Shown: piece after piece, positions 8,892 through 64,000 of the stretch | Layout: each line of letters starts with the position of its first letter | How positions within the stretch are numbered: position 1 is the stretch's first letter | DNA from: an uncultured bacterium | GTDB lineage: Bacteria > Patescibacteriota > Minisyncoccia > UBA6257 > 2-01-FULL-56-20 | Direction: 5' to 3' | Length of the DNA: 64,000 bases | NCBI GenBank assembly: GCA_963707865.1 | Contig: OY970175.1 | Coordinates: forward strand, 396,305-460,304 | Program-made: the position numbers and the translations under genes | The notes under the pieces: model-generated | Told to the model about the DNA's origin: nothing | Database searches by the model: none | The model's input: only the letters and a program-made list of their open reading frames with translations

Positions 8892-9323
8892 GAGCCTTGC
8901 GGCTCCATAACTCTTTCGAGCTATGACCCATAGGAGGTTGCTGAACGCGGGGTTCAGTATCTCCTATGGGGTTTTGAGCCATGCCAAGCGATGTTTGGTT
9001 TAGGCTATACAATCCGATATTGAATTGTTAAGAAAACTATACCGCTTGCGACCTTTCCCGTCCAACCCTAGCTTAGATCGTAGGCGTTGCGAAGGGGGAA
9101 GTTATCAACTTGCCTCATTCGGCATTTCGTCGCCCCGTAATGAAGCACGTTCCTAACGATTCTCAAAAAACTTGACAAATGTGGTGTTATTATGTTAAAC
9201 TTACAGCGTTCCTTAACAATGGAAAATTCAAGGTTTCCAGTGAAATGAGGCGAGCGTTGGGGAAGGCAATCAATGTGGCTTCTCGAACACTCGCCTCATA
9301 ACCTGAGCGGGTAGAAATGGAGG

Positions 9324-10247
9324 ATGATAACGATGAATACCACATCGATTACATCCATCACCGAAGGACAGAAAGAACTTTATGAACGCGTCGTCCGCGA
9401 TGCCGCGAAACACGGCACCGCGCTTGCGCTCCAGAAGACCGGCGCTGACCAGATCGGCTGGCAACGCGTCATTGAAAACGGTGACGACCTCCGCGAAGCA
9501 ATCGCGGCGACCATCGTGGCCAGAACAAGGGAACTCTCGCTTTCCAACCAGTTTGCAAACGAGGAAGTGAAATCCACCTACGGCTATCCCAGCGGCTACG
9601 CGCCGAAGCCGATCGAAGCGCAGGTTGCTATCCTGCGCGAGATCTGGCCGAAGCTCAACATCGGCGGCTGGGTCGCGCAGTTTGAACGCGCGGTCGCTCC
9701 CGGCGCCGAAGCACATTTCGTGATCGTCCGCTGGCAAGCGCTCGCGCCGTCCTACGGCGAGGGGTTGGAGAAGGAGCTGTTCCCCGCGCTTCGCGCGCAA
9801 CGGAACGGCACTTTCTACAACTACCGCAATGGCGAACTCGGCCCCGAGCAGCTGCGGCAGCACGAACGCACCATTCGCATGTTCGCGAAGTTCGATGCCG
9901 ACCAGCCTGGCGATGTACTCATTGTCTCGGCCCAGCTCGGCCTCCGTCACCGCGGACGTTCGACACGTCGGGCACATGAGGTGTTCGTCGTAAACGAGTT
10001 TGGTCTCGGCGCATTTCATGTCGGCTGCATCCTGCTGACTCACCCCGAGCGGGAAGTCCAATGGGAACAGCTCCATATGGATTGCCCCGGCGACGAATTC
10101 AGTCCGAGGGCGGATGGCCAGTTCTCGCACGCGCCGTACTTCGGCTTCGGCGACGTCAGGCTCAAGTTCAACGCCCACGGCGTGGGCTATGCTGGCGGGT
10201 ACTGTGGCTCCGCGTCCGCGCTGCTTCCGCAGTATCTGCAACCTTGA
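9324..10247 (+). CDS. DGR variable (target) protein; C-terminal ~45 aa encoded by the variable repeat (VR)
   Basis: A GGAGG motif lies 7 nt upstream of the ATG. The 3' 130 nt form a near copy of a downstream template repeat and differ from it only at positions that are adenine in the template. Confidence 0.7.
   Translation: MITMNTTSITSITEGQKELYERVVRDAAKHGTALALQKTGADQIGWQRVIENGDDLREAIAATIVARTRELSLSNQFANEEVKSTYGYPSGYAPKPIEAQVAILREIWPKLNIGGWVAQFERAVAPGAEAHFVIVRWQALAPSYGEGLEKELFPALRAQRNGTFYNYRNGELGPEQLRQHERTIRMFAKFDADQPGDVLIVSAQLGLRHRGRSTRRAHEVFVVNEFGLGAFHVGCILLTHPEREVQWEQLHMDCPGDEFSPRADGQFSHAPYFGFGDVRLKFNAHGVGYAGGYCGSASALLPQYLQP
10104..10233 (+). repeat. DGR variable repeat (VR)
   Basis: It aligns to 10717..10846 with no gaps. 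All 18 mismatches fall at TR adenines, mostly at codon positions 1-2 of TR AAC codons. The last 24 nt are identical and GC-rich, consistent with the IMH region. Confidence 0.8.
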
Positions 10248-10716
10248 ACGCTTGGATGCTTGGGACTTTTTATTCCCTTATCTTCTTGATCCCTTGCATT
10301 CGCGCAAGTTTTTTTCCAGGGGCTTCCGCACATTCATCATTCATCGCGGCGGCCCCTTTCTCTTTATATATTTAATGATGTTCACGATCCGTGATTTTTC
10401 TGCTATTCTTCTTTCGGGTCTAGGCCAATGCGCGGCCGTTCCGGTTCATGGCACTTGCCAACGGGATCGCCGTCGCCGAACCCTCTCTTCATAGAGAAGC
10501 AGCCAGAGTCCGGGCGATCATAATGGTTTCCCGGAGCGTGCCGCATTGGGGAGATACTGCTTGCTTTTGCCTAGTGCGGGTGTCCTGCGGAAGCGCGGGA
10601 CTGCCGCCGGATGAAATTCAGGGACCAGAGGATATACTTGGCTCCTTTTGAGCGGAAAACCTCAAGTCCCGGTGCTCAGAGATAGTTGCCCGTTGTGGAT
10701 GGGCGGAAGCAATATT

Positions 10717-10846
10717 CCGAAGGCGGATGGCCAGTTCTCGAACGCGCCGTACTTCAACTTCAACGACGACAAGCTCAAGTTCAACACCAACGACGTGGGC
10801 AATGCTAACGAGAACTATGGCTCCGCGTCCGCGCTGCTTCCGAAGT
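10717..10846 (+). repeat. DGR template repeat (TR), rich in AAC codons
   Basis: It is the adenine-rich partner of the VR. For example, TR ttc aac ttc aac gac gac aag corresponds to VR ttc ggc ttc ggc gac gtc agg. Confidence 0.8.
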
Positions 10847-10856
10847 CGCTTCCCAA

Positions 10857-10886
10857 GAGCAATGCCCCGACCTCGGTCGGGGCATT
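10857..10886. terminator. perfect 14-bp hairpin (gcaatgccccgacc tc ggtcggggcattgc) between TR 3' end and avd 3' end
   Basis: This inverted repeat was read directly from the sequence. It lies between convergent features and could act as a bidirectional terminator or as a structural element of the TR RNA. Confidence 0.5.
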
Positions 10887-10889
10887 GCG

Positions 10890-11237
10890 TTACTGCTTCA
10901 CTGAACGGATCCATCCGCCGAGCATCCGACCAACCTCGTCAATCGGCTCCTGAAACGCGAGGTATTTCTTCTGGTCGATGCCATCCGTCTCACGCATGAG
11001 CCGAATGAAGATACGGAGGAAATTCAGCTTCACGCTTGTTTTCTCCAACACGGAAAGCTTTGTTGCCTTCGGCATCTGGCTCGCTGCCATGATACCCTCG
11101 AGGATGTCTAGGATCATGCCGTCGCACCGCTGCCAAATCGTATAGCGATCCTGCTTCGAAATGAGATTGCGGTAGCTATAAAAGAGCTTGTAGAGATCGC
11201 ACGTCTTCTTGAAAATCGGGATGTCAAAATCGTCCAT
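10890..11237 (-). CDS. avd: Avd-like accessory variability determinant (four-helix-bundle protein family)
   Basis: A 115-aa basic helical protein (IWQRCDGMILDILEGIMAAS...KLNFLRIFIRLMRE) sits between the TR and the RT, on the opposite strand. Confidence 0.6.
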   Translation of the reverse strand: MDDFDIPIFKKTCDLYKLFYSYRNLISKQDRYTIWQRCDGMILDILEGIMAASQMPKATKLSVLEKTSVKLNFLRIFIRLMRETDGIDQKKYLAFQEPIDEVGRMLGGWIRSVKQ

Positions 11238-11249
11238 AGTATTTTATCC

Positions 11250-12324
<1,075 letters not shown>

Positions 12325-12461
12325 TAGCCATATGACTCTCCACAAAAAATTTGGATAGTATAGACTGGACTTTCATGAGCTTTTGTCGCCTCGTAGCGGT
12401 CTCTGAGTTATCAACTTGACCACTCTGGACGCCCAAGCGGGGTTGCGTCATCCCTTGTGGT

Positions 12462-13811
12462 ATGACTACCCAAACCATGGGGGCCAAGGGGACGGGAGCC
12501 CCCACAACAATCCCGTCCGAGGTAAAGGTCAAATACTGTCTGTATGCGAGAAAAAGCACGGAATCGGAAGAGCAGCAGGTGCTTTCCATTGATTCGCAGA
12601 TCAACGAGATGACGAAGATCGCGGAACGGGACGGGCTGGAGATTGTGGAGATTAGGAGGGAAAGCCACTCGGCGAAGGCGGTCGGCCAGCGGGAGATTTT
12701 CAACGGTCTCCTCGCGGACATCAAGGCCGGCAAGTTTAACGGGATCCTCACCTGGGCGCCGGACCGGTTGAGTAGGAACGCGGGTGACCTCGGCAATCTT
12801 GTGGATCTCATGGACCAGAAACACCTCATTGAAATCAGGACTTACAGCCAGAAGTTCACGAATTCGCCGAACGAGAAATTCATGCTGATGATCCTCTGCT
12901 CCCATGCAAAACTGGAGAACGACAACAAATCGGAGAACGTGAAGCGGGGCATGCGGGCGCGGTGCGAGATGGGCCTGCGGCCCACGGTCGCCCCCACGGG
13001 ATACCTGAATGAGAAGCGGACGGATCGGCCGTGCCAAGTAATCGTGGATCCCGTGCGGGCTCCGATCATAAGAAAGATATTTGAGAAAGTGGCGCACGAC
13101 CAATGGTCGGGACGGAAGCTCTACCATTGGCTCAAAGACGAGGTGAAATTCACGACGCCGTACGGGAAGCCGCTCGCGTTGAGCAACATCTATCTGATCC
13201 TCAAGAATACCTACTACTACGGCGTGTTTGAATACCCTTCCGGCAGCGGCAACTGGTATACGGGGACCCATACACCCATTATCACGAAGGAACTCTACGA
13301 TGCTGTGCAGGAGCAGCTCACGCGGAGCGAGATCACGAGAGAGAACAGAGAGTTCGCCTTCACAAAGCTCATCACCTGCGGCCTCTGCGGTTCGGGCGTC
13401 TCCGCTGGCGAGAAATGGAAGCACTTCAAGAACGGTACGAGCGCCCGATACGTCTACTACGGCTGCACAAAGTCGCGGGACAAGGAATGCCCCTGCGGGT
13501 ATATCACAGAGGAAGCCATCGTGCAGCAGATCATTGGCATTATTGATACCTTGGATATCAGCGAGCTGGGCATCAGGCACAAGTTCAAGGATGAGATCAT
13601 GCGGTACAACAAGTTCCGGAAGATTGCCTTGAAGGGCGCAGCGAAAGAAGCGGCCCAGGAGGATTTTGACCTCAAGGCCTATGCGATCTATCTCTTGACG
13701 GAGGGGTCCATCAGTGAGAAGCGGGAGCTTCTGGGCAACCTGAGGAGTCGGTTGATCCTCAAGAACAAGGTGCTGACCCTGCAAGAGGAACCGAAAGAAA
13801 AAACAGAATAG
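12462..13811 (+). CDS. large serine recombinase (resolvase/invertase N-domain + recombinase domain + zinc ribbon)
   Basis: It has the catalytic serine motif YARKSTESEEQQ, a recombinase-domain middle region, and the C-terminal CGLCGS...YYGC zinc ribbon. Confidence 0.8.
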   Translation: MTTQTMGAKGTGAPTTIPSEVKVKYCLYARKSTESEEQQVLSIDSQINEMTKIAERDGLEIVEIRRESHSAKAVGQREIFNGLLADIKAGKFNGILTWAPDRLSRNAGDLGNLVDLMDQKHLIEIRTYSQKFTNSPNEKFMLMILCSHAKLENDNKSENVKRGMRARCEMGLRPTVAPTGYLNEKRTDRPCQVIVDPVRAPIIRKIFEKVAHDQWSGRKLYHWLKDEVKFTTPYGKPLALSNIYLILKNTYYYGVFEYPSGSGNWYTGTHTPIITKELYDAVQEQLTRSEITRENREFAFTKLITCGLCGSGVSAGEKWKHFKNGTSARYVYYGCTKSRDKECPCGYITEEAIVQQIIGIIDTLDISELGIRHKFKDEIMRYNKFRKIALKGAAKEAAQEDFDLKAYAIYLLTEGSISEKRELLGNLRSRLILKNKVLTLQEEPKEKTE

Positions 13812-13927: not shown

Positions 13928-14005
13928 TGGTACCGCCATCGGGATTTGAACCCGAGTTTTCGCCGTGAGAGGGCGACGTCCTAGGCCGGGCTAGACGATG
14001 ACGGC
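13928..14005 (-). tRNA. tRNA-Glu (anticodon CUC), CCA encoded
   Basis: The sequence folds by hand into a cloverleaf with anticodon loop CU-CUC-AC. Its D-arm and anticodon arm closely resemble canonical tRNA-Glu. Confidence 0.75.
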
Positions 14006-22305: not shown

Positions 22306-22734
22306 ATGGGGTATAATAACGCTATGGAACTCCAGGTCGGCGTGAAAGCGCTTCTCAAAAATAAGGACGGCAAATATCTCCTTGTGCGGCGTTCGCCCAA
22401 GAAGTATCCCGAAGTCGGTGCAAAGTGGGACATCGTCGGCGGAAGGATCAATCCCGGTGCGTCGCTTCTTGATAACCTAAAAAGGGAAATTAAAGAAGAA
22501 ACGGATCTGGATCTCGCGGAAACCCCGCGACTCATAGCAGCCCAGGACATTCTACGACCTCCCGAGAAGCATATCGTGAGGTTGACTTACCTCGGGACCA
22601 TTAACGGGCAACCAAAACTTGACGATGAAAACCTGGAGTATCGCTGGTTCACGATGAACGAAATAAAGGCGCTGGACGATTTGGATTCCTACGTCAAAAA
22701 ACTGGTCAACGACGGCGAGCTTCCACTTACTTGA
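22306..22734 (+). CDS. NUDIX hydrolase
   Basis: It contains the Nudix box GGRINPGASLLDNLKREIKEETD. Confidence 0.7.
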   Translation: MGYNNAMELQVGVKALLKNKDGKYLLVRRSPKKYPEVGAKWDIVGGRINPGASLLDNLKREIKEETDLDLAETPRLIAAQDILRPPEKHIVRLTYLGTINGQPKLDDENLEYRWFTMNEIKALDDLDSYVKKLVNDGELPLT

Positions 22735-25579
22735 TTGTGATCGTTGCGAGCAGGAATGGAGTAGTGCCTAGCACTGGATCAATCGTAATCCATAACCCGT
22801 ACTTGTTTCCGATCTTTCCATTCTTGAAGGCGGACGTCAACTTGGTCGAGAGATTGTAGATGTATTGCTGACCCGTTGAATCAAAGCGGAACTGATTCAG
22901 AGTATTCGAGCCACCGCTAGATACTGCGGCGGCGGCGGTAATTCCACAGAATGTACCAGTGTCACCGGCACAAACATAAAGTTTTGCCGTCCAACCAGAA
23001 ATCGTTGAAGGGATTTTGACCGGAATAGTACTGCCGTTCTGGAAGTCCTTGTTTGAGATGGTGAGAGGAGGCTGTGCGGCAATAATCACGTCATTAACGG
23101 TCCCCGATTGGTTATTGTAGTTGCCAGTCGAACTTATAAACGTCCAAGGATCAACATACGCGCCACCCGCTGTGTGTGTAGTACCAGACAGGTTAAGGGT
23201 ATTCTGAGGGCTACCACCGACACCGATACACGAGCCGGTTGCGGTGTGAGACGTACCGTTATAAAGCACAGCGTAGCCGGTGACATGGCAGGTCGCATCG
23301 GCTTTCTTGATGTTGTCGTCAACCTTGCCGTTCGCGTCGTTATAGTTTCCTGTGACATCAGTGAATGTCCAGGCGTCGCCGGTATAGGTACCAGCATTGG
23401 TGTGAGTTGTACCGCTTAAATCAAGACCGGGTAATGCTTCACCCTTAACTCCATTTGCCGAACCATCTGCAGTGTGGGAATTGCCATCATAAGTCACATC
23501 GTAAGGAGTGACCACGATCGTCGCATCGGCTTTGCTGATATCAATGGCCACATTTCCACTGTCATCATTGTAGTTTCCGGTAACGTCTGTAAATGTCCAG
23601 TTGGCAGTCCCGCCGGGAACATCGGTGAAGGAGTCTCCGAGAACTAGGCCCGCGAGTGGTTCGCCTTTGGCGCCAGTGCAGGAGCCACTTGCTCCGTGAG
23701 CATCACCGTCATAAGTGCCGCTGTAGCCGGTGACGGTGCATGTTGCATCTGCTTTGGTGATTACAATAGATACATCGCCGCTAGCGTCGTTGTAGTTCGT
23801 TCCACCAGTAAAGGTCCAGTGAGCCGTGCCGCCAGGAACATCGGTGAAAGTAGATCCTAGATTAAGCGAACCGCTAAGGTCTTCGCCTTTTACCCCAGTT
23901 GCAGCATCAGAAGCACCGTGCGCATTGCCATCGTAGACGCCGGTGTAGCCAGTAATGTTGATCGTCGCATCGGCTTTGCTGATATCAATGGCTACACTTC
24001 CACTGTCATCATCGTAGTTTCCAGTAACGTCCGTGAATGTCCAATCCGCTGTCCCGCCGGGAACATTAGTGAAGGTTGCACCGAGGTCAAGGCCTTCGAG
24101 TGTTTCGTCTTTGGCGCCGATGCAGGAGCCTGTTGCACCATGCGGGTCACCATCATAGGTGCCGGTGTAGCCGGTGATTGTGCAGGTCGGGGCAGCCTTT
24201 GTTATGGTAATTGTTGTGCTATCACTGCTTCCATTTTGGTCGTTGTAGTTCGTCCCGCCAGAGAAAGTCCAGTGAGCAGTGCCACCGGGTACGTTCATAA
24301 AGCTGGAACCGAGGTCCACCGAAGCGCTGAGATCCGCGCCACCAACACCAAAACAGTTGCCGCTCGCGCCATGCGCATTGCCGTCATAAGCACCAGCGTA
24401 GCCAGTGATTGAAGAACAGTCTGCGGTAGCTTTGTTTATGGTGATAGAAACCGGGTCGCTCGTGGCTTGGTTGTAATTATCGTCAGCCGCTTTAGTTACG
24501 GTGATGGAACAAGTCCCCGTGCCGCTCGTGATGGTCACTGCGCCACTATTCGTGTCCACGCTGCATGCAGTGGACGCGCCCGCACTAAAGGTAACCGTAC
24601 CCGTCCCGCTGCCGCCCGACTTTCCCGCAGCGATACCTGCCTGCCCGTATGTAGCGCTTGCTGGTAGGTCGGTGGTCAATGTTGCTTGATCGGCTTTCTG
24701 TGCCGTTGTATTTTCTGTAACTTCAGGAGCGGGATTATAGCTTCCATTTCCCGCTTGGTTATAGTGAACCGTGCAAGTGCCCGTACCGCTCGTCATTGTG
24801 ATCGTGGCCGAACCGCTGCCGCTGCCGGAACAGACACCGCTCGTTGTAATAGCAACGGTCAAGCCAGAATCCGCAGTTGCCGCGACTGGAAATGTGGTGT
24901 TGTAAACCGCACTTGCCGGTGCGTGCGTAGTGACCGTGATTGTCTGATTCGCCTTCGCAATCAAATTAAACGTGGCTGTCTCAATGACAGTTTTGTTTCC
25001 CGTTAGGCCAGAAGGAGAGCAAGTTCCTGTCCCACTACAATCTCCGCCGCTCCAACCAACAAAACTTGAACCCCCATCCGCCGCAGCGGTTAAGGTTACA
25101 GAAGGGTTATTACTGTTGAATGTTTGAGTGCATGATCCAGACGTTGCCCCCGCTGCAACTATACAGTCGATGGTGGTGCCGGTGCCTGTTATGGCGCCAT
25201 TACCAGTGCCCGCTCCGTTCACTTGTAAGACAGGATGGTTTGCGTCGGTGAAGTTGCCACTCTGCGTCACGCCCGAGGTCTCGCCGGTCACAGTGTAGGG
25301 ATAGGAACCACCCGCTGTGTCATCGGTCGGGAGCGTGAACTGCCAGCTGAACGCTCCGCTCTCGTCAACAGTGGTTTCGCCCGTCACCGCGCCGTACGGC
25401 GCTTGGATGTTTATATCAACTGTTTCTCCCGCCACGTATCCGGCACCATCGCTATTGTTACCGGAAATAACGACCGTACTGCCGGGGCTGTAATCCGCCT
25501 GGTTTGTGGAAACGTATGCCAGAGCCGGCATCGTACCCGCGACCAACAAAACAAGGGAAACAATTAATGTTTTTTTCAT
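22727..25579 (-). CDS. large secreted adhesin-like protein with ~6 tandem MBG/Ig-like repeats
   Basis: It has a signal peptide and repeated ~90-aa units of the form TGYTGTYDG.aHGA.G...G.....L.LG.tFTnVPGGTA.WTFT....NYND.sG.V.I.I.KA. Confidence 0.6.
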   Translation of the reverse strand: MKKTLIVSLVLLVAGTMPALAYVSTNQADYSPGSTVVISGNNSDGAGYVAGETVDINIQAPYGAVTGETTVDESGAFSWQFTLPTDDTAGGSYPYTVTGETSGVTQSGNFTDANHPVLQVNGAGTGNGAITGTGTTIDCIVAAGATSGSCTQTFNSNNPSVTLTAAADGGSSFVGWSGGDCSGTGTCSPSGLTGNKTVIETATFNLIAKANQTITVTTHAPASAVYNTTFPVAATADSGLTVAITTSGVCSGSGSGSATITMTSGTGTCTVHYNQAGNGSYNPAPEVTENTTAQKADQATLTTDLPASATYGQAGIAAGKSGGSGTGTVTFSAGASTACSVDTNSGAVTITSGTGTCSITVTKAADDNYNQATSDPVSITINKATADCSSITGYAGAYDGNAHGASGNCFGVGGADLSASVDLGSSFMNVPGGTAHWTFSGGTNYNDQNGSSDSTTITITKAAPTCTITGYTGTYDGDPHGATGSCIGAKDETLEGLDLGATFTNVPGGTADWTFTDVTGNYDDDSGSVAIDISKADATINITGYTGVYDGNAHGASDAATGVKGEDLSGSLNLGSTFTDVPGGTAHWTFTGGTNYNDASGDVSIVITKADATCTVTGYSGTYDGDAHGASGSCTGAKGEPLAGLVLGDSFTDVPGGTANWTFTDVTGNYNDDSGNVAIDISKADATIVVTPYDVTYDGNSHTADGSANGVKGEALPGLDLSGTTHTNAGTYTGDAWTFTDVTGNYNDANGKVDDNIKKADATCHVTGYAVLYNGTSHTATGSCIGVGGSPQNTLNLSGTTHTAGGAYVDPWTFISSTGNYNNQSGTVNDVIIAAQPPLTISNKDFQNGSTIPVKIPSTISGWTAKLYVCAGDTGTFCGITAAAAVSSGGSNTLNQFRFDSTGQQYIYNLSTKLTSAFKNGKIGNKYGLWITIDPVLGTTPFLLATITIK

Positions 25580-26370: not shown

Positions 26371-26476
26371 AGGTATCCCGTTGGACTTTGTTTTGGAGAG
26401 CATCCCGGAGCCACGGCGGCTTGAAGCAACCTTTAGGTTGCTTGCCGTGGCGAGGGCGAGCGGCGTTTTCCCGCCG
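26371..26476 (+). repeat. structured repeat family B, copy 1 (upstream of dnaE)
   Basis: It is about 85% identical to 61884..61988. The differences are concentrated in two stems and are compensatory. Confidence 0.6.
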
Positions 26477-26607
26477 GAGAAAACGACCGCGTCTCCATAA
26501 AGGGAAATCTGGCGAAGCGATCACTATCTTTTTAATGAATGGTTTAGTATCATGTAATAGAAATTTAATGTTCTGCATCCTCGCTTGCGGGGGCAACATC
26601 AAGAACA

Positions 26608-32282: not shown

Positions 32283-32520
32283 GCGCACAGGCCTGGATTC
32301 GAACGGAGGAATAAGCGTCCCTTTCCACTTTTGGGAAATCTAGCGGAGTGGCGAGGAAAATCAACGGGGCATAAGCTGCCTGCCCGCCTTTGCGAACCGT
32401 GCGGAGGCCGAGCTAAAAATCCGCGAGCGAAAAGAAAATCCGCCGGGTGCCCCCGCCGAAGGCGAGAGGGTGGCAGATTTTCGTTGCGAGCGGGTTCCGA
32501 AAAAGCGGAAGGGGTGCTTA
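32283..32520 (+). repeat. repeat family A, long copy A (head motif + core), 3' end overlaps greA stop
   Basis: It has the head motif GCGCACAGGCCTGGATTCGAAC, and its core shares the sequence cccccgccgaaggcgagagggtggca...gggttccgaaaaagcggaagggg.gcttattctatc with copies B and C. Confidence 0.65.
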
Positions 32521-36869: not shown

Positions 36870-37011
36870 AAACTATACCACAACACCGGGAGAACGGGTC
36901 TTTCGTTCTATTTAGCGCACAGGCCCGGACGATCTTCGAACAGTCCTTTCCGTGGGTATCCCAAGCTGTGAAAAGATGCCGATTTTTCATTAGGATGGTA
37001 AGATACGAAAT

Positions 37012-37311
37012 ATGAAAGAATCTTTTCCGGATTCATCGGGAAGTGCTCTCACAGAACACGATTCTCAAAAAGAGCATCGAACACCAATGGAAATTACGAC
37101 CGCCAAAGGGTCTGTTTATAAATATTTGCCAGATGGGCGTACTCAGCGCTTTAAGCAGGCAACGGGAGAATTAAACGATCCTCAGGATTCCATCGTTTTT
37201 ATACCTCCTTGGGACATGATAAAAGCACCCGCCATGAAAGCGTATCCAGAAATATTTGGGCATATTGAAAACGAAGCTCAATACGAACAAGTCTTATTGG
37301 AATACGCATAA
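37012..37311 (+). CDS. hypothetical protein (AT-richer islet)
   Basis: An ORF with no recognisable motif. Confidence 0.3.
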   Translation: MKESFPDSSGSALTEHDSQKEHRTPMEITTAKGSVYKYLPDGRTQRFKQATGELNDPQDSIVFIPPWDMIKAPAMKAYPEIFGHIENEAQYEQVLLEYA

Positions 37312-37335
37312 CTGAGTGGTCGTACCATAAGGATA

Positions 37336-37572
37336 ATGGACGAAAATAGCAAAGAGTTTTTCAGTAATCAGGAAATAGCCGCAGCCACTAATATCTTTTT
37401 GGCTTTTATTGATAGAGCTAATTCCAAAAATACCTTCACCTTACCGGCGTCAAAAGAACCCAAAATCGGATACGAAACTTATGATACGCGGAAATTCATC
37501 GGCAAAGATGGGCAAACTTATCGTGAACGGCATATCGGCAATAAAGTTGTCGACATTAAATACTCATCATAA
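37336..37572 (+). CDS. hypothetical protein (AT-richer islet)
   Basis: An ORF with no recognisable motif. Confidence 0.3.
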   Translation: MDENSKEFFSNQEIAAATNIFLAFIDRANSKNTFTLPASKEPKIGYETYDTRKFIGKDGQTYRERHIGNKVVDIKYSS

Positions 37573-37580
37573 GAATTCTC

Positions 37581-37830
37581 GTGCACGGGACAGGATTCGA
37601 ACCATAGATAGTTCAGAGTGGAAGATCTGAGAGCAAACACAAAAGAAAAGAGCGCCCTCCTCCGCTTTTGAGGAACCTAGCGGAGGCGAGGAATAAGCGC
37701 GCTCCGAGTGAGCAGAAAATTTGACGGGACCCCCGCCGAAGGCGAGAGGGTGGCAAATTTTCGTAAGCGAGCGAGGAGAGCGCCCGAGCCGAAGCGGGTT
37801 CCGAAAAAGCGGAAGGGGGCGCTTATTCTA
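37581..37830 (+). repeat. repeat family A, long copy B, 3' end overlaps secY stop
   Basis: It has the head motif GTGCACGGGACAGGATTCGAAC and a conserved 165-nt core. It ends gcgcttattctatcc, which supplies secY's final codons (IE) and stop. Confidence 0.65.
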
Positions 37831-48400: not shown

Positions 48401-48491
48401 ATCTTAAAAGGTTGGGCAAAATAGTCAAAGGTTCTTTAATAATTTTTTAATCCTGTGCACAGGCCTGGACGATTTTCGAACGATTTTAGGC

Positions 48492-48830
48492 CTAATATGG
48501 CCGATAAAGAAATACGATTGCTAAGACAATGATTATCCCAATGACGGCGGTAATCCCGTGTATCCACCGCAGCAATGTTATACGCTTCTTAATGTTTATA
48601 TCTCGTGCAAGAGATTCGTGTGTTTCGGCAAATTGTATAAAGTATCCAAATCGGAGATTGATGATCCCCTTACTGAGCGGGAGAATTTTATAGAGCACCG
48701 GCTTTTTATATTCTTCCCAATCGGCAGGGTGAGATTTTTTGAAATAGGACTTCAGGCTTCCCCATAAAATGAAATGGGCTATTACGAGCAGCACGAATAT
48801 TCCACCTAAAATGGCCATTCCCAGATTCAT
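48492..48830 (-). CDS. small membrane protein (2 TM)
   Basis: It has hydrophobic N- and C-terminal helices. A head motif lies 39 nt upstream of its start. Confidence 0.4.
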   Translation of the reverse strand: MNLGMAILGGIFVLLVIAHFILWGSLKSYFKKSHPADWEEYKKPVLYKILPLSKGIINLRFGYFIQFAETHESLARDINIKKRITLLRWIHGITAVIGIIIVLAIVFLYRPY

Positions 48831-48915
48831 ATGACTATTCTATCACAAGCTCTAAAAACAAAATCATAGCGCACCGGCCTGGACGATTTTCGAACAGTTC
48901 TGATTGTGATGCAGG

Positions 48916-49182
48916 TTGGCAGATGATAAACTAGATAGCATGGATTGGCGGAATACCCCGGTGCGAGCTAGTTGGGGCATTAGTTACTTTCAGCGAGCCG
49001 TTATTGGATTGGCTTTAATTCTCATTGGGGTTATATCCAGCGCCTTCGTTCAATTCCTATCTGGACTCTTCCTTGGAATAGATTTAGACCCTTTCACGGC
49101 TGGTCTTATTGGGGTGTTGATTGTTGGGGTTGTGATTCTGATTTACGCCGTTTCTCTCAATTTTCACAAGAGAAAGAAATAG
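48916..49182 (+). CDS. small membrane protein (2 TM)
   Basis: It has two hydrophobic helices. Confidence 0.35.
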   Translation: MADDKLDSMDWRNTPVRASWGISYFQRAVIGLALILIGVISSAFVQFLSGLFLGIDLDPFTAGLIGVLIVGVVILIYAVSLNFHKRKK

Positions 49183-49265
49183 CAACATAACATGCACAGG
49201 CCTGGACGATTTTCGAACGATTCTTTCTCTTTCCCAATATCTAGGGAATTGTAGTCTTTTCTAAG

Positions 49266-50268
49266 ATGTTTCATGTCCGCACATTTGTCCCCTCGATAGC
49301 TTGAAGATATTCAACCGGCGTCTTTCCCGCAAGGGCAAGATGAGGACAGACCGTGTTGTACCAGGCGCAGTACGCGGCCTGTTTTTGTTTCGCTTCGGCC
49401 ACCGTGCGGAATGATATCTTGTTCCAGAACCGTTCGCGGTCATTGCGATGCGACCGCTCCACCTTGCCGTTCTGCGCAGGATGCCCCGGGGCGATGAGAT
49501 AGTGCGTCATTTTTTGTTTTTCACAAGTAACATCAAAAGGATGCAACCGCGGCTTCAGGGGATCTGCTGACTTCGGATATCCCACGTACCGGTTCGTGAA
49601 GATTGATCCGTTATCGGTCTTCACCGCACGGATGCGGAAGGGTGCCGTAGCAATGACTTTCTCGAGAAACAAGATCGCGGTCCGCGTGGATTGTTCTTGG
49701 GTCACCCAGAGATGCCGCCACCGCGTGCAGCAATCAATCGCGGTGAACTGGTAGAGCCATTGCCCCTTGAATCTCCGCACATAAACGACATCAATCTCGA
49801 TGATCTCTCCGGGAAACGTGGCGGTCGGTTTCCACTTTGCTTTGGGCACCAACCGTTTTTTGGTTCTTGAGAGCCCCTCACGTTTCAGGACTTTGGCAAT
49901 ACCCCGCACGGAGAGCTTCAGGCCCTCGCGGGCGAGGAGATACATGAGGACATCAGGACCCAGATCCGTTGCTGTTCGCAACGATCTGATCCGATTCACG
50001 ATGGTCTGTGAGAATTGTTTCGGATGCGTGTGCGGCCTGCGCGAGTGCGACACGAGCGCATCGATCCCGCCCCTGCGATATGCCGCCACCCACCGCTTGA
50101 GCGTGCGATATGAAAACGGCGCGTGGGCAGCAATGTCCTTGATACTCATCTCTTTCTCAAGATGCGGGGTGATCCACCGCATCCGTTCCTCTGCTGCGTC
50201 TTTTGCGAGTGTTTGTGGCATATTCCCCAGCTTACACTTCAAGGGGCCATATGTATGTGCAGAGTACC
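49266..50268 (-). mobile_element. IS481-family insertion sequence (~1.0 kb) with imperfect terminal inverted repeats
   Basis: A single DDE transposase is flanked by GGGGACAAATGTGCGGACAT (left end, reverse complement) and GGGGCCATATGTATGTGCAG (right end). Confidence 0.6.
49271..50221 (-). CDS. IS481-family DDE transposase (rve integrase core)
   Basis: It has an N-terminal HTH and a DDE core (IDVVYV...AVKTDNGSIF...HPAQNGKVERSHR). Confidence 0.75.
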   Translation of the reverse strand: MPQTLAKDAAEERMRWITPHLEKEMSIKDIAAHAPFSYRTLKRWVAAYRRGGIDALVSHSRRPHTHPKQFSQTIVNRIRSLRTATDLGPDVLMYLLAREGLKLSVRGIAKVLKREGLSRTKKRLVPKAKWKPTATFPGEIIEIDVVYVRRFKGQWLYQFTAIDCCTRWRHLWVTQEQSTRTAILFLEKVIATAPFRIRAVKTDNGSIFTNRYVGYPKSADPLKPRLHPFDVTCEKQKMTHYLIAPGHPAQNGKVERSHRNDRERFWNKISFRTVAEAKQKQAAYCAWYNTVCPHLALAGKTPVEYLQAIEGTNVRT

Positions 50269-50358
50269 AAGAAGAATTGACTACGAGCAATATTTATGCT
50301 ATAAATCCTCGCAGAAAGACGCACTATCGGAATCAAAACTTAAAAGGAAAGGTGCCTT

Positions 50359-51249
50359 ATGAGTCAAATTAATGTGGTCGTTCCGGATGGTTCCATGCAG
50401 GCCGTCATTACCGACCTTTTTGCAAAGGCAGGGTTGCCTGTGGCGATAGAGAAAAGACGGACGAAAGAAGGTAGGGTCGGGGTTGACTGGATCAAGCGAG
50501 TTGCCTTCCAGAGGCCGCAGGAAATCCCGCAATATCTCGACGCCGGTCATTTTGACGTTGCCGTCGTGGGCGAGGATTGGATCGCTAACTGGGGCTTAAC
50601 ATTCCCCGTTCTGCTCAAACTGCCCATCGGCCGCAGCGGCAACAAGCCCGTCAAAATCGTTCTGGCGGTGAATCAAGCCAGTGGTTTTCGACGGGTGGAA
50701 GAGCTGCCTCAAGGCTGTGAAGTGGCAACTGAATACGTCCAACTAGTCGAGAGGTTCTTCGCTAGGCAGGGAAGGGCTGACATCGAGGTTGTCCCATCCT
50801 TTGGCAACACCGAACACAAGATTGGATTCGGTGCGACGGCAATCGTTGACGTGACAGAGAGCGGCGATTCTCTGAAAGAAAATGGACTCGAAGTGATTCA
50901 CGAAATAATGGAGTCCAATACCGTTGTCGTGGCGAACCATGATTCGCTGGCCGATGAATCTAAGCGTCCATACATCGATTGTCTCGTCCAACTCATCAAG
51001 GGTGCATTTCAGGCATCGCAACACGTAATGCTTGTAGCCAATGTACCCAAGAAGGTTCTGGGCGATGCGAGTCGCATCATCGGAGGACTCAAGGGGCCTT
51101 CCTGTTCGCCGCTCATGGGTATCATAGGATGGTTCGCCCTCCAATCTGTTGTGGCTCGAAAAGACGAACAAAAGATAATTTTCGAGTTGCTGCAGATAGG
51201 AGTCACCGACATCCTCGTTAATCGAGACATTCCCTTGATGATGTCTTAG
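50359..51249 (+). CDS. hisG: ATP phosphoribosyltransferase (long form HisG)-like
   Basis: It contains EIPQYLDAGHFDVAVVGEDWI and AIVDVTESGDSLKENGLEVI, which resemble the HisG catalytic core, and has a C-terminal regulatory-like domain. Confidence 0.55.
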   Translation: MSQINVVVPDGSMQAVITDLFAKAGLPVAIEKRRTKEGRVGVDWIKRVAFQRPQEIPQYLDAGHFDVAVVGEDWIANWGLTFPVLLKLPIGRSGNKPVKIVLAVNQASGFRRVEELPQGCEVATEYVQLVERFFARQGRADIEVVPSFGNTEHKIGFGATAIVDVTESGDSLKENGLEVIHEIMESNTVVVANHDSLADESKRPYIDCLVQLIKGAFQASQHVMLVANVPKKVLGDASRIIGGLKGPSCSPLMGIIGWFALQSVVARKDEQKIIFELLQIGVTDILVNRDIPLMMS

Positions 51250-51348
51250 ACGCCGCAAAGGCAACATGGCTTTCGGGCGGTCGCCAAATCATAAAGTACC
51301 GCCCACAACACACCACCTCAGACGTGGTGTTGCGCATTTTTATATTTT

Positions 51349-51590
51349 GTGCGCAGGCCAGGATTCGAACAACTAATCTCATTAATATAAACCGTGCCGG
51401 CAGGGGTGTTGGGGTCTCCTGTGTTTTTGTTTTCGAAGAACCTAGCGGAGGCGAGGAATCAGCGCTCTCCGAGCGAGCAGAAAATTTGACAGGACCCCCG
51501 CCGAAGGCGAGAGGGTGGCAAATTTTTGTAAGCGAGCGAGGAGAGCGCCCGAGCCGAAGCGGGTTCGAGAAAACAAAAACACAGGAGACC
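51349..51590 (+). repeat. repeat family A, long copy C (between hisG and rpsJ terminator)
   Basis: It has the head motif GTGCGCAGGCCAGGATTCGAAC and a core almost identical to copy B (cctagcggaggcgaggaat.agcgc...gggttc). Confidence 0.65.
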
Positions 51591-51618
51591 AAAAACTCCC
51601 GCCGAAGCGGGAGTTTTT
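51591..51618 (-). terminator. rho-independent terminator immediately after rpsJ
   Basis: The minus-strand RNA reads AAAAACUCCCGC UUCG GCGGGAGUUUUU, starting 1 nt after the rpsJ stop. Confidence 0.7.
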
Positions 51619-61791: not shown

Positions 61792-61867
61792 CGATTAAAT
61801 TTTTCTAAACCACGCGGGTCTGGACGATTTTCGAACAGTTCTCGGACTTGGCTTTGACAAAGTAGCT

Positions 61868-62008
61868 GCGCATGAGCGTTGGTTTTTCGGAGCATCCCGG
61901 AGCCGCAACGGCTTGAGGCGACCCTCAGGTCGCCTGTTGCGGCGAGGGCGAGCGGCGTTTCCCCGCTGGAGGAAACGACCGCGTCTCCGAAAAACCAACG
62001 CTCATGCG
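61868..62008 (+). repeat. structured repeat family B, copy 2, enclosed by a 25-bp perfect outer stem, abutting fusA stop
   Basis: The core 61884..61988 matches copy 1. The outer arms are gcgcatgagcgttggtttttcggag and ctccgaaaaaccaacgctcatgcgc. Confidence 0.6.
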
Positions 62009-64000
62009 CTAGCGCTTCTTCCCCTCTATAATAAGCTGCGCCACGTTCTGCGGCGTCGGCTCATAGTGATCAAATTCCATAGTAAACGAACCACGGCCCT
62101 GTGACATTGAACGGAGCTCGGTCGCATAGCCGAACATTTCGGAAAGCGGGACTTTCGCGTCAATCACCTTCAGCCCCGGCCGGTCACCAAGCGATTCGAT
62201 GCGGCCACGCTTCGCATTCAATTGTCCGGTCACTTCGCCCAAAAAGTCCGGCGGCACAAGCACCTGCAATTTCATAATCGGTTCCAAAATCACTGGCCTC
62301 GCGCGCTTCGCGGCCTCCTGGAACGCAATGGAACCCGCGATTTTGAATGCCGCCTCCGAGGAGTCCACTTCGTGGAACGAACCGTCGTACAAAGTCACCT
62401 CAACGTCCGTCACGGGATAGTGCGCGAGAATTCCTTTGTCCAGCGCTTCCTTCACGCCCTTCTCTGTCGCCGGAATGAATTCATGAGGGATAACGCCTCC
62501 TTTGATCTCATCCAGAAACACAAAACCCGTTCCGCGCGGAAGGGGCGTCACGCGGAGCCATACATGTCCGTACTGACCGCGGCCACCGGACTGACGGATA
62601 TACTTTCCTTCCGCTTCCGCCTCGCCCATAATTGTTTCTTTGTATGCCACTTGAGGCCGGCCCACGTTCGCTTCCACGCCAAACTCCCGCTTCATGCGAT
62701 CCACAATAATCTCCAAGTGTAGCTCGCCCATGCCAGAAATGATCGTCTCGCCGGTGTCCGGATCCCCCGCCACCCGGAAAGTCGGGTCCTCCTCGGCCAA
62801 ACGGTGCAGGGCTGTGCCCATTTTTTCCTGGTCTGCCTTTGTTTTCGGTTCAATGCGGATACCGATCACGGGTTCGGGGAAAGTGATGCGCTCCAAGACG
62901 ATGGGCGTTTCTGGATCGCAAAGCGTGTCCCCTGTCGTCGTATTTTTCAAACCAACGATCGCCGCAATCTCGCCCGCATAAACCTCTTCCACCTCCTCGC
63001 GATCGTTCGCATGCATGCGGACCACGCGACCGATGCGCTCCTGGTTGTTCTTGGTGGAATTCAAAATGTACGAACCGCGCTTCAGGACGCCGGAATAGTT
63101 TCTGAAATATGCGAGCGTGCCTACGTAAGGGTCGGTCGCGATTTTGAACGCGAGTGCCGAGAACGGCTCTTCGTCTTTTGGATAGCGCTCCACCTCTGCA
63201 CCCGTCTTTAGGTCGTGGCCCTTCACAGGTGGCAGGTCTGTCGGCGCCGGCAAGTATTCAACCACCGCATCCAGCACGAACTGCACCCCCTTGTTCTTCA
63301 ATGCCGAGCCGCAGAAGACCGGTACGATCTTGTTCGCGATCACCGCTTTGCGCAGCACGCGGCGAAGCTCTTCAATACCGATCTCCTTTCCGTCCAGATA
63401 TGCTGCCATCGCTTCGTCGTCGTTTTCAGCAATTTTTTCAATCAGCTCGTGGCGGCGCTTTGCAATGTCTGCCTTCATATCGTCCGGGATCGTGATTTCA
63501 ACTATCTTCTCACCATGCTCGCCCTCAGAGGTATATGCCTTGTTTGAAAGGAGGTCTACGATCCCCTTAAAATTTTCTTCCAAACCGATTGGCAGCTGCA
63601 CCGGGATGGCATGCGGCGTGAGCCGGTCAAGAATTGATTGAAAACTCCCCATAAAGTTCGCGCCCATCCGATCGAGTTTATTGATAAAGCAGATGCGCGG
63701 CACGTTGTATTCGTCCGCATAGCGCCAATTCGTCTCCGACTGCGGCTCAACGCCCGCGACACCGTCAAACACGACGACTGCGCCGTCGAGAACCCTAAGC
63801 GACCGCTTCACCTCTACCGTAAAGTCAATGTGTCCCGGCGTATCAATAAGGTTGATGCGGTGCTCATACTTTTTGTCGTGGTTGCGGTAGGTCGGCGTCC
63901 AGAACGCGGTCGTCGCGGCGGACGTGATCGTAATGCCGCGCTCGCGCTCCTGTTCCATCCAGTCCATCACGGTATCCCCCGTGTGCACCTCGCCGATCTT
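62009..64000 (-). CDS. fusA: elongation factor G (N-terminus beyond window end)
   Basis: It contains [17 protein letters not shown] and conserved domain IV-V motifs. The frame is open at position 64000. Confidence 0.9.

Follow-up and report, generated by a model that had tools for sequence, protein, structure and literature searches.

A tRNA-3'-end-like motif that probably serves as a recombination site bounding small mobile gene cassettes in Minisyncoccia

A motif of about 33 nt recurs in a 64,000-nucleotide stretch of DNA, which we refer to as the window, from an uncultured Minisyncoccia bacterium (GenBank assembly GCA_963707865.1, contig OY970175.1, positions 396,305 to 460,304). In our view, the motif is very probably a recombination site that bounds mobile gene cassettes. 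It occurs in a longer form, F2, and a shorter form, F1, and on balance we favour an explanation in which F2 is an attachment (att) site carried by each cassette and F1 the matching landing site in the chromosome, the two giving rise to arrays of cassettes. The enzyme may be a large serine recombinase (LSR) that acts in trans, a proposal which we hold with about as much doubt as confidence. All sites are described on the minus strand of the window, which is the strand of the neighbouring genes.

The 24-mer CACAGGCCTGGACGATTTTCGAAC, with up to three mismatches allowed, matches the window exactly five times, always on the plus strand (at 36918, 48458, 48872, 49195 and 61813). No match is expected by chance and none was found in 100 shuffles, which bears out an earlier note on this DNA that had listed five near-identical copies. 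When the copies are aligned, a block of about 33 nt is conserved and the flanks are unrelated. Of the two palindromes to which the note had drawn attention, TTCGAA is present in all five copies, but CAGGCCTG is intact in only two (48458 and 49195); its central position is free (CCnG) in the wider family, and it is therefore not a conserved feature. The note had also described the motif as a variant of the 'head' of a repeat, family A. This relation holds, as the three heads (the F1 sites in Table 1) are the motif without a 5-nt CGATn. The suggestion that the motif might be the autonomous head of the family A element does not hold, because head and motif are two forms of one site and not parts of one transposable element. 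Finally, one copy had been placed at the boundary of an insertion sequence (IS). It does lie 46 nt beyond the stop codon of an IS481-like DDE transposase open reading frame (ORF; 49271–50290), but no terminal inverted repeats were found there. We had considered that the motif is the terminal repeat of this IS, which the earlier note had named as a reading to be excluded. With all copies direct and on one strand, and no inverted repeats flanking the transposase gene, this is ruled out, and a guess at a CTAG target site was withdrawn.

Outside the window, an exact-pattern scan with one genome per species found the motif in four metagenome-assembled genomes of Minisyncoccia (Patescibacteria, or candidate phyla radiation, CPR) and in one probable chance match from Actinomadura. 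A metagenome scan gave 77 further loci, and viral contigs scanned for F2 and for the element-side motif of the LSR sites described below gave 0 matches. The 93 sequences compared, which come from genomes and metagenomes of related Minisyncoccia, yielded 28 F1 and 131 F2 sites by fuzzy matching. About a dozen G+C-rich matches, which lie inside genes, look like chance; when these and duplicates were removed, 76 F2 and 19 F1 sites remained (95 sites). Ten secondary F2 copies that do not fit the search pattern show the same core.

On the minus strand F2 reads AAAATC GTTCGAA nATCG TCCAGGCC n G(T/C)G C(A/G)C. F1 reads GTTCGAA TCC(T/A)G(T/G)CC n G(T/C)G C(A/G)C and is thus F2 without nATCG. F1 equals positions 53–74 of a tRNA, comprising the T loop, the 3' strands of the T stem and the acceptor stem, the discriminator base and C74. 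In two related contigs the 3' end of a real tRNA is the F1 site (tRNA-Leu(gag) in L016 and tRNA-Tyr in L071), and in six others (L020, L082, L058, L014, L017 and L046) the first F2 is preceded at 340–2300 nt by a co-oriented tRNA; an exact GTTCGAATCC is present in five of the eight. The tRNAs of these genomes typically end in ...GCAC with no encoded CCA, which matches the G^CAC at the right edge of F1 and F2 (the caret marks the crossover mapped below). The first sites of the window are free-standing mimics of a tRNA 3' end, and the repeat proper, F2, carries the 5-nt insertion. A second F2-like lineage, GTTCGAAnATCGTCC...CCGGGG^AGCCA, was found in A+T-rich contigs (L028, L039, L050, L059, L076, L037, L042, L074, L078, L083, L090 and L033). 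It again forms arrays, for example in L074, and here the cassette edge supplies nucleotide 72, G73 and CCA.

The likeness to the 3' third of a tRNA raises the question of whether the motif is a tRNA-like signal for RNA processing or stability that punctuates transcripts. We consider this highly improbable. The T stem and the acceptor stem lack their partner strands, and the copies have neither a shared nor an unusually stable fold on either strand (z-scores −1.2 to +2.5), with no hairpin at the site. ARAGORN finds no tRNA at the window sites, and a covariance search with Rfam gave no match, at gathering or E-value thresholds, at any window site or in 20 loci.

The arrangement of the two forms follows a strict order. 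In all 21 non-redundant arrays that contain F1, this form comes first and only F2 follows (chance about 3e-9), the layouts being 12, 122, 1222 and 12222, where 1 is F1 and 2 is F2; all sites are on one strand in each of the 38 loci with two or more sites. The window contains two such arrays, F1(37581)-F2(36915) and F1(51349)-F2(49192)-F2(48869)-F2(48455), together with an empty F1 (32283) and a lone F2 (61810). F1 sites neighbour greA, secY, rpsJ, fusA, tRNA or 5S rRNA genes. In the window, Pfam identifies the neighbours of family A as SecY, L15, EF-Tu and GreA, so that the three F1 sites sit just 3' of housekeeping genes; this identification also disposed of a reading of family A and its guide-like heads as IS605 TnpB/omega-RNA.

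The units between sites are 276–1258 nt long, apart from one of 2133 nt, which includes the DDE transposase gene, and a 2890-nt gap in L090, an outlying contig. A truncated ORF lies between the sites of L090 and is a candidate IS91-like (Y2) transposase, judged by eye. Most units carry one ORF. The encoded proteins are mutually unrelated and include NUDIX, HAD, dCMP deaminase, inositol monophosphatase (IMPase) and NYN proteins; many have no Pfam match, and in one the N-terminal sequence looks pilin-like by eye. The ORFs that follow the F2 copies in the window are the NUDIX gene and small ORFs without a Pfam match.

Comparison of syntenic genomes indicates that the units are gained, lost or swapped, the breaks falling at G^C. 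Downstream of greA, family A and F1 lead straight into TTGATTTTCATT... in the window, the right flank being joined directly with no cassette. At the same place in L003 and L088, which are 92% identical, family A and F1 are followed by 489 nt that include a tiny ORF, then by F2 and TTGACTTTCATT..., with the same right flank as in the window. In the secY–NUDIX interval the flanks of the window and L040 are 90% identical, but the F1–F2 units are unrelated (642 nt versus 420 nt). The 112-amino-acid cassette of the window (48488–48868) recurs between F2 sites in L053 and L049, where the array context differs, and its homology extends as far as the sites and no further. Within genome OY970382.1 one cassette follows F1 in L010 and F2 in L015, and identity starts directly after GTG, at a rare CAG. 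Both copies of this cassette (L010 and L013) end on the right in one and the same rare AGACC form of F2, and beyond GTGCAC they are no longer identical. A further cassette follows F1 sites in unrelated surroundings in L007 and L048.

The recurrence of cassettes and the limits of their identity suggest that the mobile unit is C(A/G)C, a body of one or two genes with their own expression signals, and F2 ending in G(T/C)G. Recombination would take place at G^C, between tRNA positions 71 and 72, so that the incoming CRC (R, purine) restores nucleotide 72, the discriminator base and C74. Left of the junction, F1 and F2 share a homology so short and interrupted that ordinary homologous recombination can hardly account for the exchange, and a site-specific enzyme is suggested. 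Of the functions that the earlier note had entertained, an att-like target sequence is the one backed by synteny, array order, junctions and spacing.

An alternative is that the repeats are inert scars, that is, partial-tRNA att remnants of full-size integrative elements that integrated and decayed repeatedly, with cassettes that are not mobile on their own. Partial tRNAs are indeed scattered in tycheposon islands after successive integrations (bioRxiv 10.1101/2020.12.28.424599), and the arrays have no integrase gene. However, decay would leave ragged left boundaries, whereas recurring cassettes have both boundaries exactly at sites. Genomes with cassettes of only about 70% identity still have the full 33-nt F2 with its 5-nt insertion, and cassettes are swapped between genomes that are 90% identical. 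We regard the scar explanation as unlikely.

The earlier note had given first place to a shared operator or promoter, and in one version of this idea a transcription factor would bind the motif at about −38 to −65 and control a regulon of small accessory genes. The observation behind it is sound: four of the five window copies lie 19–58 nt upstream of the starts of co-oriented, minus-strand ORFs (36869/36860, 48400, 48830 and 61791). In addition, a −35-like TTGACn occurs within 16 nt to the right of 21 of the 95 non-redundant sites, compared with 7.9 expected. The remaining evidence does not support this as the main role. The site keeps one orientation, but only about two-thirds of the top ORFs of the units are co-oriented with it and about one-third are reversed; the window copy at 49195, for example, is followed by a plus-strand ORF. 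The reversed terminator of a convergent gene follows directly after 19–21 of 72 sites, compared with 2 in shuffles. Taken together, this feature and the TTGACn enrichment, which fits cassettes with a promoter of their own at the left edge, imply that the units carry their own expression signals in either orientation, and that they do so while the orientation of the site stays fixed argues against an operator or promoter. The spacing to −35 and −10 elements and to the start codon varies, and the promoter-like hexamers lie anywhere from 3 to more than 60 nt away. The motif has no dyad symmetry, CAGGCCTG being unconserved, and regulation would leave the F1-first order, the tRNA identity of F1 and the G^C breakpoints of the indels unexplained. 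We therefore consider an operator very unlikely. F2 was also tried as a sigma-70 promoter in itself and rejected, as there is no conserved −10 at a fixed distance downstream, and the notion that an intrinsic terminator usually precedes F2 was dropped when a strict count gave only 4–8 of 72.

Two further structures occur to the right of sites. In three arrays (Table 1) the site is directly followed by about 85 conserved nt that include two hairpins (CACCACGTCT.AGGTGGTG and GGGCGG...CCGCCC). A long hairpin, AAAG-CCCCGCGAAC...GTTGCGGGG, recurs just right of sites in L002, L015, L016, L021 and L023 and resembles either a conserved terminator in reverse or a palindromic element of small size. Found at only five of the 95 sites, the CCCCGCGAAC hairpin was rejected as a part of the site.

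The spacing within the two forms bears on the enzyme. From GTTCGAA to the mapped crossover there are 19 nt in F1 and 24 nt in F2, and the proximal 12 nt are alike. In serine integrase sites the motif for the zinc-ribbon domain (ZD) is found at half-site positions 11–19 in attB and 16–24 in attP (PMC3783163), and F1 (19) and F2 (24) show this attB/attP spacing. The window encodes an LSR (Table 1), which was annotated after the 5-bp difference between F1 and F2 had been noticed. The 3' end of its gene converges on the 3' end of tRNA-Glu (13928–14005, minus strand), 116 nt away. Patescibacteria very commonly carry this family, which is unusually well conserved among them, the best 120 matches having 63–84% identity, and a paralogue of 70% identity is recorded on the same 898,885-nt contig. 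Family members converge on tRNA 3' ends in six independent contexts (Glu, His, Val, Lys, Lys and Ala, the last from a distant member). In L095 the junction reads GTTCAATTCCCGTTAGGCA^CCCCAAGTATTTGAGTTATCGAGGG, tRNA-His and then the element, with GTTC 19 nt from the point of likeness. In L096 it reads GTTCTAAACACATCCAACAAGACA^CCCCAAATAATTTTTTTATCGAGGG without a tRNA, and GTTC is 24 nt from the point where L095 and L096 become alike. As these junctions stand next to LSR genes, the geometry of F1 and F2 is that of real sites of the LSR family in the window. The left half-site of L096 and F2 have GTTC.AA...C.TCCA in common, and the element side carries TTATCGAGG at 16'–24' in L095, in L096 and at the tRNA-Glu junction of the window. 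The single LSR relative on a viral contig (L097) was uninformative.

These distances suggest how the arrays might be built. An LSR acting in trans would treat F1 as an attB-type half-site, in which the distal motif GTTCGAAT occupies positions 19–11 from the crossover, and F2 as an attP-type half-site, with the same motif at 24–16, 5 bp further out. If only the left half-site counts, every pair of F1 and F2 would act as attB and attP, whatever stands to the right. A circular cassette would then insert only at F1, immediately 3' of it, and would push older cassettes outward; excision would occur only between F1 and a downstream F2, and F1 would never be joined to F1, nor F2 to F2. Behind housekeeping genes, tRNAs or rRNA, such a scheme would produce F1-[cassette-F2]n arrays, with F1 always first and never internal, one orientation and the newest cassette beside F1, as is observed.

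Several points weigh against this account. LSR sites normally have two recognisable half-sites, yet here the left one alone is conserved; on the right, conservation ends with CRC, and positions 4'–25' hold about 0 bits. At the mapped crossover no dinucleotide other than GC is invariant, and the flanking pyrimidine and purine (Y and R) vary within arrays. A palindromic GC abolishes polarity in the serine integrases that have been studied, and yet there are no inverted composite sites and all 38 loci keep to one strand. No recombinase gene was seen in or beside any array in the loci scanned, the LSR gene nearest to an array being at a distance of 18 kb in the window and 3.5 kb in L015. The LSR element of the window has an element-side sequence different from F2, and neither F2 nor a P-type half-site was found at the far end of the LSR elements of the window and L095. 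The conservation of F2 is in part a matter of ascertainment, since the loci were collected by the F2 pattern. At the tRNA-Thr locus, L010 has 16 nt, F1 and two cassettes that are absent altogether from the window and L003, which implies that the F1 pads themselves can be gained or lost. Neither circular intermediates nor recombination activity have been observed.

The unconserved right half-site, the GC, the variable Y and R and the missing far-end F2 keep a tyrosine recombinase in trans alive as an alternative. Here the same cassette system would be run by an integron-like enzyme (attI × attC) or by a tRNA-targeting integrase. The 3' ends of tRNA genes are the classic targets of tyrosine integrases. 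The order of the arrays, with a primary site first and a cassette site ending each cassette, matches that of integrons, and the Y/R variation that flanks GC could reflect an overlap region of 6–7 bp. Nevertheless, no tyrosine recombinase was found among the window ORFs scanned or near arrays, the site has no hairpin and the cassettes carry their own promoters. Moreover, a distal motif shifted by exactly 5 bp between site types is a known feature of serine integrases (PMC3783163). We judge a tyrosine recombinase to be improbable, and we prefer the LSR as the enzyme that would act on F1 and F2. No cassette encodes a recombinase of the Tyr or Ser family, and the units in this respect lack the internal integrase of integrative elements. 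A regular-expression screen of all loci for Tyr and Ser recombinases gave no match, but the same screen also missed the window LSR that was later found by Pfam.

Table 1. Positions of the sites, cassettes and associated features (window coordinates unless a contig is named).
Feature	Position	Strand	Remarks
F2 copy 1	36915..36947	-	AGGACT GTTCGAAGATCGTCCGGGCCTGTG^CGC (minus strand); closes the cassette that follows the secY-side F1
F2 copy 2	48455..48487	-	Closes the 112-amino-acid cassette
F2 copy 3	48869..48901	-	F2 site
F2 copy 4	49192..49224	-	Closes the first cassette (2.1 kb), which also carries the IS481-like transposase gene
F2 copy 5	61810..61842	-	Lone, in the fusA-proximal variable region; no F1 upstream in the window genome
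F1 greA	32283..32304	-	GTTCGAATCCAGGCCTGTG^CGC; 213 nt past the greA stop codon; 'empty' in the window
F1 secY	37581..37602	-	After secY and a family A hairpin; opens the array that ends at F2 copy 1
F1 rpsJ	51349..51370	-	After rpsJ and a family A hairpin; opens the array with F2 copies 4, 3 and 2
Cassette between F1 secY and F2 copy 1	36948..37580		ORFs on the opposite (+) strand (37012-37311 and 37336-37572), no Pfam match
First cassette of the rpsJ array	49225..51348		ORFs 50743-51267 (-) and 50299-50550 (-); IS481-like transposase 49271-50290 (-)
Cassette	48902..49191		Reversed (+) membrane-like ORF of 88 amino acids, 48916-49182
Cassette	48488..48868	-	Membrane ORF of 112 amino acids, 48492-48830
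Conserved piece of about 85 nt	51268-51351		Also L001 3517-3615 and L073 about 266-340; after F2 once and after F1 twice
Family A hairpin	37603..37822	-	Between the secY stop codon and F1; similar copies at 32305-32517 and 51371-51600
LSR gene	12462..13811	+	Resolvase, Recombinase and Zn_ribbon_recom domains (Pfam)
LSR leader	12340-12461		Also L093 9800-10000
DGR target ORF	9324-10247	+	Variable repeat 10103-10233
DGR template repeat	10716-10846
DGR bAvd	10890-11237	-
DGR reverse transcriptase	11250-12324	+	Split by an (AG)14 run at 11803-11830

Family A, which precedes the F1 sites of the window and is absent from some other F1 sites, is a very stable imperfect hairpin of about 170–180 nt (minimum free-energy z-scores of −5.0 and −8.1). 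Its core is conserved, and the outer stem differs in sequence between copies with pairing kept, the rpsJ copy having perfect arms of 22 nt. The greA and secY copies have the last codons and the stop codon (ATAGAATAA) in common. A second repeat family, B, is represented in the window at 26387–26501 and 61868–62009 (82% alike), and in its fusA copy a stretch of 92 nt is enclosed by perfect inverted arms of 25 nt. Relatives of family B adjoin tRNA-Met in L014, L025 and L092 and also occur in L003.

The surroundings of the LSR genes have features of their own. A conserved leader of about 100 nt before the start codon, GTCGCCTYGTAG.GGTCT.TGAGTTA.CAA...GTTGCG.CATCCCTTG.GGTATG, is common to 70%-identical LSR genes and may be a regulatory RNA or a binding region. 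A complete diversity-generating retroelement (DGR) lies directly upstream of the LSR gene in the window (9324–12324), and all 18 mismatches between its repeats are A in the template. The pairing of DGR and LSR is also found in L098 and L099, and a reverse transcriptase (RT) gene stands beside the LSR gene in L096. A LOOT RNA (Rfam RF03000, 85.6 bits; 8892–9006, minus strand) adjoins the DGR target gene. The LSR genes of L095, L096, L098 and L100 are in defence-rich islands with type I restriction–modification systems, N6/N4 methylases, SNF2/PLD helicase–nucleases, RT and SduA_C. Domains of the HTH_17/MerR type, whose fold is known from excisionases, are encoded by small ORFs of L096; in L098 and L099 they are fused to the type I restriction–modification methylase beside the LSR gene. 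Elsewhere in the window (22727–25579, minus strand) there is an ORF of 950 amino acids with no Pfam match, which contains 222-nt tandem repeat units (D1, D5 and D8) at 23516–24409.

CPR bacteria have tiny, host-dependent genomes, and little is known of how they gain and lose genes. We put forward, as a tentative proposal, that they possess an integron-like form of gene capture based on a different chemistry, in which a conserved chromosomal LSR would use mimics of tRNA 3' ends as multiple landing pads for integrase-less single-gene cassettes tagged with half an attP site (F2), identity and polarity both being read from one half-site. If this were so, it would provide a route to rapid turnover of accessory genes in genomes of less than 1 Mb. 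A cassette system spread over many loci would explain the small variable regions beside core genes, of which the window has four arrays in 64 kb, and F1 and F2 would offer a simple sequence tag for the flexible gene pool in metagenomes. Should the enzyme be the conserved LSR, its att sites would have a single cognate half-site in which the 5-bp shift alone tells 'B' from 'P', which would be relevant to the engineering of serine integrases.

In our literature searches on integrons, cassettes and tRNA islands of Patescibacteria, no account of such arrays came up, but parts of the arrangement can be recognized in known systems. One parallel in layout is the integron, which likewise has a primary site first, a site ending each cassette and one orientation for all sites, as seen here in 21 of 21 arrays and 38 of 38 loci. 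Integrons also share the crossover at the 3' edge of the site, the completion of the site by the first bases of the next cassette, the position of the newest cassette beside the primary site and a diverse accessory cargo. They differ in that an IntI tyrosine recombinase adjoins the primary site, where the loci scanned here have none. Their attC is an imperfect-palindrome hairpin with R'' and R' boxes, whereas the present site is a conserved linear sequence; with no palindrome and all copies direct, an integron attC, a repetitive extragenic palindromic (REP) hairpin and a miniature inverted-repeat transposable element (MITE) hairpin were each rejected as identities for it. Furthermore, the cassettes described here bring promoters and terminators of their own, and their orientation may be reversed.

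A second parallel is the staphylococcal cassette chromosome (SCC). SCC units form arrays at the 3' end of rlmH/orfX, at a single locus, and are moved by Ccr large serine recombinases; they are 3–60 kb long and are separated by short direct repeats of the integration site, and recombinase-less pseudo-SCC elements depend on a recombinase in trans. The tandem arrays behind a housekeeping gene, the short direct site repeats and the units without a recombinase are thus common to both, but the present units are of 0.3–1.3 kb (one of 2.1 kb), occur at four loci in 64 kb and have a site derived from tRNA.

Tycheposon islands arise by integration at tRNA genes, and their elements are kilobases long and have their own, mostly tyrosine, integrases (Hackl et al., bioRxiv 10.1101/2020.12.28.424599). 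As in the arrays, older elements are pushed outward and partial tRNA copies are left at old junctions. Unlike them, the repeat described here has a fixed 5-nt insertion that is common to all arrays whatever the starting tRNA or pseudo-site, and it bounds single-gene units. The two forms of the site resemble those in the model for the A118/LI integrase (Rutherford et al., 2013; PMC3783163), in which two site types have a common proximal segment and a distal 7–9-bp motif that is 5 bp closer in one of them. In that system too the half-sites are of about 19 and 24, and crossover needs no extended identity (PMC3783163). The presence in the window of an LSR gene from a Patescibacteria-wide family that abuts tRNA 3' ends agrees with LSR att systems in general. 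These differ from the arrays, where one half-site is conserved and the invariant central dinucleotide would be the palindromic GC, and where integrase-less single-gene cassettes occupy many loci per genome at a target that mimics the 3' end of a tRNA. Judged by sequence comparison, the site itself is most likely an att-type cassette site.

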